A stretch of DNA of 64,000 nucleotides from Escherichia coli (GTDB lineage: Bacteria > Pseudomonadota > Gammaproteobacteria > Enterobacterales > Enterobacteriaceae): assembly GCF_041248615.1 (NCBI RefSeq), contig NZ_CP158426.1; one strand, given 5' to 3'. The position numbers were made by a program. This document shows, piece after piece, positions 48,001-51,000 of the stretch (position 1 is the stretch's first letter; each line of letters opens with the position of its first letter).

Positions 48001-51000
48001 GTAAACCTTCGCCGGAGGAGGGGGTGGTCGTCGCGGCAATGTTGTCGTAGATCTGCCAGGTCACGTAACGCCAGGTATCGACGCGCTTTTGGATAGCGTG
48101 GGTAATGTCGACAATCTGGTAACTTTTATCTTTCAGCCAGGCGTTAACGGCGCTTTGTACCATTACACCCATCGTCACCAGTAACACAATGATCAACAGT
48201 AAAAAGAAGCGGGTAATGCTCCCCGGTAGGAGTGAAAAGCGGGTCGTGGCCGTTGTCTCTTTCTGACGCATTCGTGTTTATGACCTGTTAAAACTTCGCG
48301 AAGTGATAGGGCAGTATAAAGGGTACAGTGTGAAATTCCAGACTCTTACCGGATTGATGATTCTCTATTCTCCAGTGATATTTATCATCCTGCATTGGGG
48401 GAAATAGATGTACAAGCGCCATTTTGCTGTACAAATAACCTACGAAAAGCCCAACGAAATTAATTGCAAATAAACGAAGATTGCTGGAAATTATGCTGAT
48501 GTTAATTATTTGTGAAATAGTTAACAAGCGTTATAGTTTTTCTGTGGTAGCACAGAATAATGAAAAGTGTGTAAAGAAGGGTAAAAAAAACCGGATGCGA
48601 GGCATCCGGTTGAAATAGGGGTAAACAGACATTCAGAAATGAATGACGGTAATAAATAAAGTTAATGATGATAGCGGGAGTTATTCTAGTTGCGAGTGAA
48701 GGTTTTGTTTTGACATTCAGTGCTGTCAAATACTTAAGAATAAGTTATTGATTTTAACCTTGAATTATTATTGCTTGATGTTAGGTGCTTATTTCGCCAT
48801 TCCGCAATAATCTTAAAAAGTTCCCTTCTATTTACATTTTGAAACATCTATAGCGATAAATGAAACATCTTAAAAGTTTTAGTATCATATTCGTGTTGGA
48901 TTATTCTGCATTTTTGGGGAGAATGGACTTGCCGACTGATTAATGAGGGTTAATCAGTATGCAGTGGCATAAAAAAGCAAATAAAGGCATATAACAGAGG
49001 GTTAATAACATGAAAGTTAAAGTACTGTCCCTCCTGGTCCCAGCTCTGCTGGTAGCAGGCGCAGCAAACGCTGCTGAAGTTTACAACAAAGACGGCAACA
49101 AATTAGATCTGTACGGTAAAGTAGACGGCCTGCACTATTTCTCTGACGACAAGTCTGTAGATGGCGACCAGACCTACATGCGTCTTGGCTTCAAAGGTGA
49201 AACTCAGGTTACTGACCAGCTGACCGGTTACGGCCAGTGGGAATATCAGATCCAGGGCAACAGCGCTGAAAACGAAAACAACTCCTGGACTCGTGTGGCA
49301 TTCGCAGGTCTGAAATTCCAGGATGTAGGTTCTTTCGACTACGGTCGTAACTACGGCGTTGTTTACGACGTAACTTCCTGGACCGACGTACTGCCAGAAT
49401 TCGGTGGCGACACTTACGGTTCTGACAACTTCATGCAGCAGCGTGGTAACGGCTTCGCGACCTACCGTAACACTGACTTCTTCGGTCTGGTTGACGGCCT
49501 GAACTTTGCTGTTCAGTACCAGGGTAAAAACGGTAGCGTAGATGGCGAAGGCATGACCAACAACGGTCGTGGTGCTCTGCGTCAGAACGGCGACGGCGTT
49601 GGCGGTTCTATCACTTATGATTACGAAGGCTTCGGTATCGGTGCTGCAGTTTCCAGCTCCAAACGTACTGATGATCAAAATGGTAGCTACATCAGCAATG
49701 GTGTAGCTCGTAACTACATCGGTACTGGCGACCGTGCTGAAACCTACACTGGTGGTCTGAAATACGACGCTAACAACATCTACCTGGCTGCTCAGTACAC
49801 CCAGACCTACAACGCAACTCGCGTAGGTTCCCTGGGTTGGGCGAACAAAGCACAGAACTTCGAAGCTGTTGCTCAGTACCAGTTCGACTTCGGTCTGCGT
49901 CCGTCTGTAGCCTACCTGCAGTCTAAAGGTAAAAACCTGGGTGTCATCAATGGTCGTAACTACGACGACGAAGATATCCTGAAATATGTTGATGTTGGTG
50001 CGACCTACTACTTCAACAAAAACATGTCCACCTACGTTGACTACAAAATCAACCTGCTGGACGACAACCGCTTCACCCGTGACGCTGGCATCAACACTGA
50101 TGACATCGTAGCTCTGGGTCTGGTTTACCAGTTCTAATTTCGATTTATATCGAACAAAGGGCCTGCGGGCCCTTTTTTCATTGTTTTCAGCGTACAAACG
50201 CGTTTTTTTGGTGTACTCTTGCGACCGTTCGCATGAGGATAATCACGTATGGAAATAAGCTTTACCCGCGTGGCACTGCTGGCTGCCGCGCTCTTCTTTG
50301 TTGGTTGCGATCAAAAACCACAACCCGCCAAAACCCACGCTACCGAAGTTACCGTTCTTGAAGGCAAAACCATGGGAACCTTCTGGCGTGCCAGCATCCC
50401 TGGCATTGACGCCAAACGCAGTGCTGAACTTAAAGAGAAGATTCAGACCCAGCTGGACGCTGACGATCAGCTGCTTTCGACCTATAAAAAAGACTCTGCG
50501 CTGATGCGCTTTAACGACTCGCAAAGTCTGACACCGTGGCCGGTAAGTGAAGCGATGGCCGATATCGTCACCACCTCGCTACGTATTGGCGCAAAGACCG
50601 ATGGCGCGATGGATATTACTGTTGGGCCGCTGGTGAATCTGTGGGGCTTTGGCCCGGAACAACAACCAGTACAAATTCCGAGCCAGGAACAAATTGATGC
50701 AATGAAAGCCAAAACCGGCTTACAGCACCTGACTGTCATCAATCAGTATCATCAGCAGTACCTGCAAAAAGATCTTCCGGATTTATATGTCGATCTCTCC
50801 ACCGTCGGCGAAGGCTATGCCGCCGATCATCTGGCACGCTTGATGGAGCAGGAAGGTATTTCTCGCTACCTGGTGTCGGTGGGCGGGGCGCTGAACAGCC
50901 GTGGTATGAACGGTGAAGGCCAGCCGTGGCGAGTGGCGATTCAAAAACCAACCGATAAAGAAAACGCAGTTCAGGCGGTGGTGGATATCAACGGCCACGG

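Follow-up and report, generated by a model that had tools for sequence, protein, structure and literature searches.

A naturally occurring ompC allele of Escherichia coli with divergent surface loops and a predicted K-12-like pore

More than 220 OmpC sequences are known in E. coli and that of K-12 is only one of them, so that it is usual, and not anomalous, for an OmpC to differ from K-12. Among 2707 OmpC proteins, Beck et al. (2016) distinguished 33 variants of loop L4, 30 variants of L5, and 13 variants of L7, occurring in many combinations. The region adjoining ompC is a recombination hotspot (PMC6970295).

Several of these loop variants have been linked to ligand recognition. Two differences between the K-12 and O157 proteins, the GVIN insertion in L7 and the deletion of GFTS from L4, have been dissected for phage PP01: GVIN is necessary, and K-12 OmpC devoid of GFTS and supplied with GVIN is sufficient. 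The L7 GVIN is a determinant for gp38 of this phage, as well as part of the epitope of the monoclonal antibody 2G12. Phage T4 reportedly cannot use O157-type OmpC, and a phenylalanine of L4 matters (PMC5221442, given there as unpublished data). Recognition by CdiA-EC536 depends on L4 and L5, and the uropathogenic alleles A54H (c6/b6/e) and A42H (c7/b1/e) conferred CdiA-EC536 resistance (Beck et al., 2016). As for the pore, mutation at G132, G137, or R195 lowers beta-lactam permeability (Patino-Navarrete et al., 2020), and for A226D a two-fold effect on MIC was reported, with susceptibility increased, not decreased.

Here, we analyze ompC in a 64,000-nt stretch of an E. coli genome (contig NZ_CP158426.1; hereinafter, the window) that matches isolate NRZ14408. 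In our assessment, it is the functional chromosomal ompC, one of many natural alleles, in which loop variants expected to confer a different receptor specificity are combined with a predicted K-12-like permeability; we assign this reading a probability of about 0.95.

Identity and regulation of the gene

A 375-aa ompC had been proposed at 49010-50137 in the first-pass annotation, and the open reading frame was found at exactly these coordinates on the plus strand (Table 1). The whole protein scores 759.9 bits against the NCBIfam model "porin OmpC" (NF007841; cut-off 484), while the OmpF and PhoE models yield 475 and 451 bits, both under their cut-offs (583 and 599, respectively). The match to Pfam Porin_1 (PF00267, general bacterial porin) has E=6e-141, and PDB chains of solved OmpC structures match the protein with E=4e-207 to 6e-221. 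Judging from these OmpC-family, Porin_1, and PDB scores, the homology is real and not due to chance. The C-terminus (…VYQF) is the same as in K-12, with the aromatic end typical of outer-membrane beta-barrels, and the signal peptide is predicted to be cleavable. The gene order rcsD, micF, ompC, apbE (ftp), ada coincides with that of MG1655, ompC being divergent from micF.

Table 1. Features of the ompC locus in the window.
Feature	Position	Strand	Remarks
micF small RNA gene	48583..48676	-	Rfam RF00033, 116.8 bits vs gathering score 79; divergent from ompC
ompC regulatory region and 5' leader	48677..49009	+	three tandem repeats resembling OmpR boxes, starting TTTACATTTTGAAACATCTA
ompC CDS	49010..50137	+	ATG-to-TAA ORF, 375 codons plus TAA; encodes porin OmpC precursor
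signal peptide, residues 1-21	49010..49072	+	same as K-12 in alignment; mature PDB chains begin at query residue 22
loop L1, SDDKSVD	49142..49162	+	K-12 SDNKDVD; same L1 in O157, CFT073, and 536 alleles
loop L4, class c7	49526..49582	+	4 aa shorter than K-12 (without GFTS)
loop L5, class b5	49664..49732	+	8 aa longer than K-12; predicted extra beta-hairpin
beta14 patch, codons 299-301	49904..49912	+	L>V plus two synonymous changes, relative to closest other allele
loop L7, class e	49934..49972	+	4 aa (GVIN) longer than K-12; same as O157:H7
L8/C-terminal patch, codons 354-365	50069..50104	+	Q>R, two synonymous changes, N>D
ompC intrinsic terminator	50156..50181	+	GC-rich hairpin plus T run; same as K-12

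From micF to the ATG, only 3 mismatches with K-12 were observed in 427 nt, two of them at 48828-48829, and micF itself has one base different from K-12, in the terminator stem. The three tandem repeats upstream of ompC are presumably OmpR sites. Judging from this conservation, the regulation of ompC (promoter, micF, terminator) is predicted to be K-12-like. That the protein assembles into trimers, conducts as a channel, and is osmoregulated through OmpR is likewise predicted, given an L2 the same as in K-12 and the few differences in the regulatory region.

As one to four places per E. coli genome match the ompC query, paralogues do exist, and the gene could in principle be a paralogous or prophage porin of the OmpN, NmpC, or Lc type, or else a pseudogene, rather than the housekeeping ompC. 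The probability of this is negligible: it is refuted by the synteny between micF and apbE and by the family scores, and disagrees with the full-length frame, the K-12 signal peptide, the C-terminal YQF, and the conserved promoter and terminator. An antisense ORF of 364 aa was rejected as a candidate gene; it has no Pfam match, and its frame is open in all alleles, being a by-product of codon bias.

Loop variants, distribution, and origin of the allele

As the K-12 reference, we used MG1655 OmpC from NC_000913.3 in a global alignment, with strands and loops assigned by the structure-based scheme of Beck et al. (2016; S1 Fig). The reference has 367 aa, the length given in the first-pass annotation, and the window protein (375 aa) is indeed longer. 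In the alignment, 345 residues are identical, 18 are substituted, and a further 16 columns are indels. Relative to K-12, L4 is shortened by 4 aa, and L5 and L7 are extended by 8 and 4 aa, respectively. All of these indels, together with 14 of the 18 substitutions, are localized in extracellular loops L1 (2 substitutions), L4 (5), L5 (5), L7 (1), and L8 (1), none of these loop regions being identical to K-12, whereas L2, L3, and L6 are the same. The remaining substitutions are found in strands beta10 (G>A and I>V) and beta14 (L>V) and at the L8/beta1' boundary (N>D). Thus, the differences concentrate in surface loops, as had been claimed, while the barrel and termini match OmpC; the three loop peptides quoted for this claim lie at residues 175-188, 217-240, and 307-322, and none of them is present in K-12 OmpC.

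The allele was already known, and it is ordinary natural variation, because wild E. coli commonly carry this very version as well as every one of its loop variants, all of which have been catalogued. The identical gene is annotated as WP_001590387.1, "porin OmpC", and under the same name the exact 375-aa protein is present on 827 public contigs. A 100% identical ompC was found in 22 of 5426 complete genomes (at least 99% identical in 39), and 19 of these 22 are porcine isolates, several of them named ETEC or O139:H1. The 24 kb around ompC are 100% identical to NZ_LT599825.1. Loops L4, L5, and L7 are exact string matches to c7, b5, and e, respectively, in S2 Table of Beck et al. (2016). At the DNA level, the 66-nt L4 segment was found in 1843 of the 5426 genomes (200 at >=99%), the 72-nt L5 segment in 425 (56 at >=99%, among them E. 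coli C and ATCC 8739), and the 66-nt L7 segment in 3481 (1615 at >=99%). The mixing of loop types is also directly visible in 134 cluster representatives. In the part of S1 Table of Beck et al. (2016) that was covered, the combination c1/b5/e (strain B088) is present, and neither c7/b5/e nor WP_001590387 was found. The small number of complete genomes with the exact gene might point to a strain-specific, previously unseen allele, an explanation that is hardly conceivable, as it is refuted by the RefSeq accession, the public contigs, and the fact that every variable loop is a named catalogue entry.

Compared with the allele of 2012C-4221, there are 7 codon differences, which fall into two short clusters, codons 299-301 and 354-365. 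At the beta14 patch, the RPSVAYL state is common to the alleles of 536, CFT073, and F11, and the R and D states of the L8/C-terminal patch also occur in allele 6104H. By this pattern, both appear to be small recombination patches, and the window allele looks like the 2012C-4221 allele with pieces from other allele families. On a larger scale, the window and a porcine strain have about 8 kb of identical sequence in common, bordered by patches that are 2-4% divergent. OmpC alleles of this kind would arise under diversifying selection exerted by phages, contact-dependent inhibition (CDI) systems, and antibodies, and would then be reshuffled by homologous recombination.

Instead of having arisen within E. 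coli, the extended L5 and the insert in L7 might be cassettes imported from another species. All three AAT asparagine codons and the only CAA glutamine codon of the highly codon-biased ompC are situated in the variable segments of L5 and L7, and the enrichment of AAT there (Fisher p=0.017) is expected of foreign or recently created sequence. This codon pattern, however, is equally explained by relaxed codon selection in fast-evolving loops. Moreover, among the 134 closest cluster representatives, the b-type L5 was observed only in Escherichia/Shigella-type proteins and no donor was found; in OmpC of Citrobacter, L5 is short and L7 differs. Hence, we regard import from another species as unlikely. 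The possibility that a tandem duplication gave rise to the 8 aa inserted in L5, with SYISNG and NYIGTG as the repeated motifs, was considered separately and rejected as too weak: the spacing of the motifs is 9 codons instead of 8, and they have only TACATC in common.

Pore and receptor function

The constriction zone, which we take to consist of the basic ladder K16/R37/R74/R124 and acidic D105/E109 on L3, is the same as in K-12 at all these residues. More broadly, mature K16, D18, R37, R74, D105, E109, R124, R132, and R174 are unchanged, as are precursor G132, G137, and R195 (R191 in the window protein). None of the low-permeability replacements at G137 (D), G132 (D), and R195 (L/E) is present, and the only reported permeability-related state in the allele is Asp at the A226D position (K-12 position 226). 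Because the K-12 state is kept throughout L3, at the pore-lining residues, and at G132, G137, and R195, a marked change of permeability is not supported, and the suggestion of the first-pass annotation that permeability may be altered finds little backing. Solute permeability should be essentially K-12-like.

An AF2 model was built from an alignment of 73 sequences, including distant porins from a representative search; a model based on only 31 sequences of 89-98% identity had a mean pLDDT of 31.7, was unusable, and was discarded. The retained model (mean pLDDT 95.5, pTM 0.91) comprises 16 strands, with a short helix located in L3, and yields TM-scores of 0.94-0.96 with solved E. coli OmpC structures. 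L4 is modeled with pLDDT of about 80-82. In L5, strands are placed at mature residues 205-208 and 211-214 with pLDDT of 81-86; as the b-type L5 occurs in no solved structure, this hairpin conformation is a predicted one. The protein would then be a standard 16-stranded trimeric general porin with eight external loops and L3 folded into the lumen, the barrel, the trimer-latching L2, and the constriction loop L3 being as in K-12.

Could the allele nevertheless be an adaptation to antibiotics, selected or imported to admit fewer beta-lactams, like the ST38/phylogroup D alleles and the G137D and R195L mutants? The window equals isolate NRZ14408, its source looks like a clinical isolate from a reference centre, recombinational replacement of ompC goes with carbapenemase-producing lineages according to the literature, and the allele lies within a shared recombination block. 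On the other hand, G132, G137, and R191 are in the K-12 states, not D, E, or L, both L3 and the basic ladder are those of K-12, most isolates in which this allele occurs are from pigs, and Asp at K-12 position 226 is reported to raise susceptibility. Such an adaptation is thus very improbable, and we retain the reading of a natural allele with a K-12-like pore.

The loops are a different matter. They had been described as receptors for phages and colicins and as targets of antibodies. The published data agree with this for phages (fibres and adhesins) and antibodies (a monoclonal one); for colicins no support was found, and the other protein ligand that we found is CdiA-EC536. The further proposal that the allele may alter phage susceptibility is consistent with published work tying the same loop differences to recognition by phages and contact-dependent toxins. 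The experiments that we found were performed with related alleles, none with the exact c7/b5/e OmpC. A search for statements on OmpC loops in a paper on the T4 fibre tip (PMC6957217) retrieved none, and a paper on Gp38 (PMC12032242) deals mainly with OmpA.

By analogy with these related alleles, the receptor specificity of the window allele is expected to differ from that of K-12. The allele does not have the L4 GFTS segment, containing the Phe implicated in T4 binding, and possesses the GVIN hairpin of L7 on which gp38 adhesins of the PP01 type depend; its presumed long L5 hairpin resembles those of alleles that CdiA-EC536 does not recognise. L5 and L7 jointly form the cleft entered by PP01-type gp38, and one may speculate further that the longer L5 could reshape or occlude it. 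In that case, the presence of GVIN notwithstanding, bacteria with this allele would be resistant to such phages and to CdiA-EC536, and c7/b5/e, carried on the recombination block of about 8 kb that a human clinical isolate shares with porcine ones, would be a mark of selection exerted by gut phages or CDI, and not of drift. We offer this model, suggested by the predicted structure, as a tentative and rather doubtful one.

Beyond annotation, the allele is of little importance. Generally, the loop type of OmpC helps to predict the host range of OmpC-dependent phages (T4-like, PP01-like, and some with lambdoid gpJ fibres), susceptibility to CDI of the CdiA-EC536 type, and cross-reaction of loop-directed antibodies; in these terms, the window allele is predicted to resemble O157 at L4 and L7 and E. 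coli C at L5.

A separate observation concerns the L7 epitope LGVING, proposed to be O157-specific: its DNA segment is at least 99% identical in approximately 30% of complete E. coli genomes.

Comparison with known OmpC proteins

K-12 OmpC (P06996; PDB 2J1N) shares with the window protein the locus, signal peptide, barrel, L2, L3, L6, and pore-lining residues (345/367 identical), and its structure superimposes on the AF2 model with a TM-score of 0.94/0.96 and rmsd of 1.7 A; the strand blocks contain 4 conservative changes. The best sequence match in PDB is OmpC of O157:H7 (WP_000865552.1; PDB 9WCB, E=5.7e-221), solved in complex with the central tail fibre gpJ of a phage. Here, the TM-score is 0.96/0.98 and rmsd is 1.4 A. 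L1 and L7 (GVING) are the same, and L4 differs at two residues (D/S, G/E). In contrast, the O157:H7 protein has a short L5 (SPLYIGNG, class a6) instead of the 8-aa-longer b5, and further window/O157 differences are V/L300, R/Q354, and D/N365.

The protein WP_064225515.1, encoded, at 99.2%, in 2012C-4221 and some 15 further complete genomes, is also of 375 aa, with 372/375 identical residues and the same L1, L4, L5, and L7. The long b-type L5, the short c-type L4, and the GVIN-containing L7 are also found together in OmpC of E. coli C (WP_000865600.1), A54H, and A42H. The window L5 differs from the b6 and b7 types by 1-2 residues and from b1 by more, and E. coli C OmpC is different in L1 and L2 as well. 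Finally, OmpC of the phylogroup D/ST38 type and the G137D and R195L mutants represent the same gene, likewise spread by recombination at the ompC locus; the window allele, which retains G137 and R195 (R191), is free of the lumen-charge changes that define these low-permeability forms.

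Identity of the window OmpC and its differences from K-12

The window ompC is intact, with K-12-like regulation and pore, and differs from the K-12 gene in the exposed loops. Its product scores 759.9 bits against the NCBIfam model "porin OmpC" (cut-off, 484), stays under the cut-offs of the NCBIfam OmpF and PhoE models, and matches Pfam Porin_1 (E=6e-141) as well as the solved OmpC structures 9WCB (E=6e-221), 2XE1 (E=2e-211), and 2J1N, the K-12 protein (E=4e-207). By every testable criterion it is unambiguously a member of the OmpC family, as proposed in the first-pass annotation, whose lengths (375 aa here, 367 aa in K-12) agree with the open reading frame and with MG1655 (NC_000913.3).

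In a global alignment with K-12 OmpC, 345 residues are identical and 18 are substituted, and 16 columns hold indels. When mapped with the structure-based strand/loop scheme of S1 Fig in Beck et al. (2016; PMC5056734), all three indels and 14 of the 18 substitutions are assigned to external loops: L1 (two substitutions), L4 (five and a 4-aa deletion, GFTS), L5 (five and an 8-aa insertion), L7 (one and a 4-aa insertion, GVIN), and L8 (one). The others are situated in β10 (G>A, I>V), β14 (L>V), and at the L8/β1' boundary (N>D). There is thus no loop-wide identity with K-12, and the divergence of surface loops noted earlier from the sequence is borne out; the three peptides quoted then (residues 175–188, 217–240, and 307–322) do not occur in K-12 OmpC. 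Loops L2 (the trimer latch) and L6 are identical to those of K-12.

A first AlphaFold2 model, built on a shallow alignment, failed (pLDDT 31.7). The second, based on 73 sequences including distant porins, has 16 strands, a mean pLDDT of 95.5, and a pTM of 0.91. In this model, L7 forms a long hairpin with its tip at N314-G315, and the L5 insertion is predicted to form an extra small hairpin (pLDDT 81–86). Foldseek comparison with solved E. coli OmpC structures gives TM-scores of 0.94–0.96, and an rmsd of 1.4 Å to 9WCB, in which a phage gpJ central tail fiber is bound to OmpC of EDL933.

The suggestion that permeability might be altered is not supported. The constriction loop L3 and the pore-lining residues K16, D18, R37, R74, D105, E109, R124, R132, and R174 (mature numbering; a list based on the OmpC structure literature) are in the K-12 state. 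The same holds for the G132, G137, and R195 sites; the changes that lower β-lactam entry are G132D, G137D, and R195L and, in alleles of phylogroup D, D137/E195 (PMC6970295). The K-12 A226 position is occupied by Asp, and an A226D mutant reportedly had halved ampicillin and piperacillin MICs, a small effect seen in a single study.

Gene neighborhood and regulatory signals

The order of genes around ompC is that of MG1655.

Features of the ompC region (window coordinates)
Feature	Coordinates	Strand	Remarks
rcsD	45599-48271	-	890 aa; upstream of ompC
micF	48583-48676	-	Rfam, 116.8 bits
ompC	49010-50137	+	ATG to TAA, 375 aa
Antisense ORF	49103-50197	-	364 aa; opposite almost all of ompC
ompC terminator hairpin	50156-50175	+	identical to K-12
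apbE/ftp	50249-51304		downstream of ompC
ada	51378-52442		downstream of ompC

Between micF and the ompC start codon, the sequence departs from K-12 at just 3 of 427 positions, and the leader and Shine-Dalgarno region of ompC are unchanged. At 48828-48829, CT replaces the GC of K-12, 4–5 nt upstream of TTTACATTTTGAAACATCTA, the first of the OmpR-box-like repeats in the ompC promoter. At 48594 (+ strand), within the micF terminator stem, G replaces A, and a formerly mismatched hairpin position becomes part of a perfect 10-bp stem.

The antisense ORF was rejected as a gene. A Pfam search with its translation gave no match, and in the ompC alleles of K-12, O157, and E. coli C this frame is open as well, with 1–2 stops. 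It is a by-product of codon bias, as in-frame antisense stops require one of the rare sense codons TTA, CTA, or TCA.

Distribution and mosaic origin of the allele

The unusualness implied by the comparison with K-12 vanishes when the population is considered instead. Exact copies of the 1128-nt gene are carried by 22 complete E. coli genomes, 19 of them porcine (several named ETEC or O139:H1), the remainder being the human isolates OW967178 and OZ547043 and strain NRZ14408 (host not given); 39 genomes have at least 99% identity. Over the 24 kb around ompC, identity to NZ_LT599825.1 (E. coli NRZ14408) is 100%; in that record the gene is annotated as WP_001590387.1, "porin OmpC," and the exact protein is found in 827 public contigs. 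Hence this is an already recorded allele, which offers nothing new as a kind of protein, as a family member, or as a variant. Since identity to it lies mostly between 90 and 99% across 5430 matching records, diversity at ompC is the rule. Indeed, 2707 E. coli OmpC proteins comprised more than 220 distinct sequences, varying above all in L4, L5, and L7 (33, 30, and 13 variants, respectively, in many combinations), and the window loops are exact S2 Table entries of that study, i.e., classes c7 (L4), b5 (L5), and e (L7) (Beck et al., 2016; PMC5056734).

Among 5426 complete genomes, the L4 segment (66 nt) was matched in 1843 (at least 99% identical in 200), and the L5 segment (72 nt) in 425 (at least 99% identical in 56), with E. 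coli C and ATCC 8739 among the 425. The L7 segment (66 nt, 49916-49981), encoding LGVING, was matched in 3481 genomes, including O157:H7, and is at least 99% identical in 1615. Because of this last figure, LGVING, which was proposed as an O157:H7-specific antibody epitope and together with a conserved L6 peptide forms the epitope of the antibody 2G12 (PMC8426304), is far from O157-specific. Loop types re-assort freely among the 134 nearest protein-cluster representatives, where the long b-type L5 is restricted to Escherichia-type sequences and Citrobacter OmpC has a short L5.

The nearest different allele, WP_064225515.1 of strain 2012C-4221, differs in seven codons, at 299–301 and 354–365, with synonymous and non-synonymous changes intermixed; clustering of this kind is typical of short patches of recombination. 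The patch states RPSVAYL and DDNRFT…TDDIV are also present in other OmpC allele families. On a larger scale, about 8 kb (~45000-53000) are near-identical to porcine strain K_EC180, with only two differences, near 46500-47000. This block, common to NRZ14408 and porcine isolates, spans rcsD, micF, ompC, apbE, and ada and is flanked by patches of 2–4% divergence from K_EC180 (e.g., 53000-54500, 56500-57500, and 60000-61500), an arrangement that reads as a recombination mosaic around ompC. (In K_EC180, atoS, at 2005-3827 of the sequence from that strain, is annotated as frameshifted.) Divergence of apbE/ftp and ada (50249-52442) from K-12, ~5–10 mismatches per 100 nt, is far above that of the micF/ompC promoter, which suggests that the sequence downstream of ompC is part of a divergent recombination tract. 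The ompC-adjacent region has been called a recombination hotspot, with 20 independent cases of recombinational ompC replacement (PMC6970295).

Codon usage would fit a young or an imported origin of the loop sequence. The gene has three AAT Asn codons and a single CAA Gln codon, every one of them inside L5 (49664-49732) or L7 (49934-49972); AAT accounts for 3/9 Asn codons in these segments vs. 0/23 elsewhere (Fisher p=0.017), and codon adaptation is lower in loop than in barrel DNA. No donor of the L5/L7 loop sequence was identified.

Receptor function and closest relatives

The proposed relevance of the loops to receptor function is supported by published work on matching loop states. The contact-dependent inhibition ligand CdiA-EC536 recognizes OmpC via L4 and L5, and the alleles A54H (c6/b6/e) and A42H (c7/b1/e) of uropathogenic isolates gave resistance to it (Beck et al., 2016; PMC5056734). 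These two alleles bracket the window allele in loop classes, which makes it probable that the latter is not a CdiA-EC536 receptor.

Phage T4 cannot exploit O157 OmpC and depends on a Phe that K-12 OmpC carries in L4 (unpublished data in PMC5221442). OmpC-dependent T4 adsorption is unlikely here, since this Phe falls in the missing GFTS segment.

Phage PP01 gp38 requires the GVIN of L7: its deletion from O157 OmpC abolished adsorption, and K-12 OmpC became a full receptor once GFTS had been removed and GVIN added. The gp38 protein enters a cleft that L5 and L7 form, and it tolerates single changes in L5. The window allele shares GVIN and the absence of GFTS with PP01-receptor OmpC, but has 8 aa more in L5, which could reshape or occlude the cleft.

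Among relatives, the 2012C-4221 protein differs by three residues. OmpC of E. coli C has the same loop types and is 13 substitutions and one indel apart, whereas O157 OmpC has equal L1 and L7 and a near-identical L4 but a short L5.
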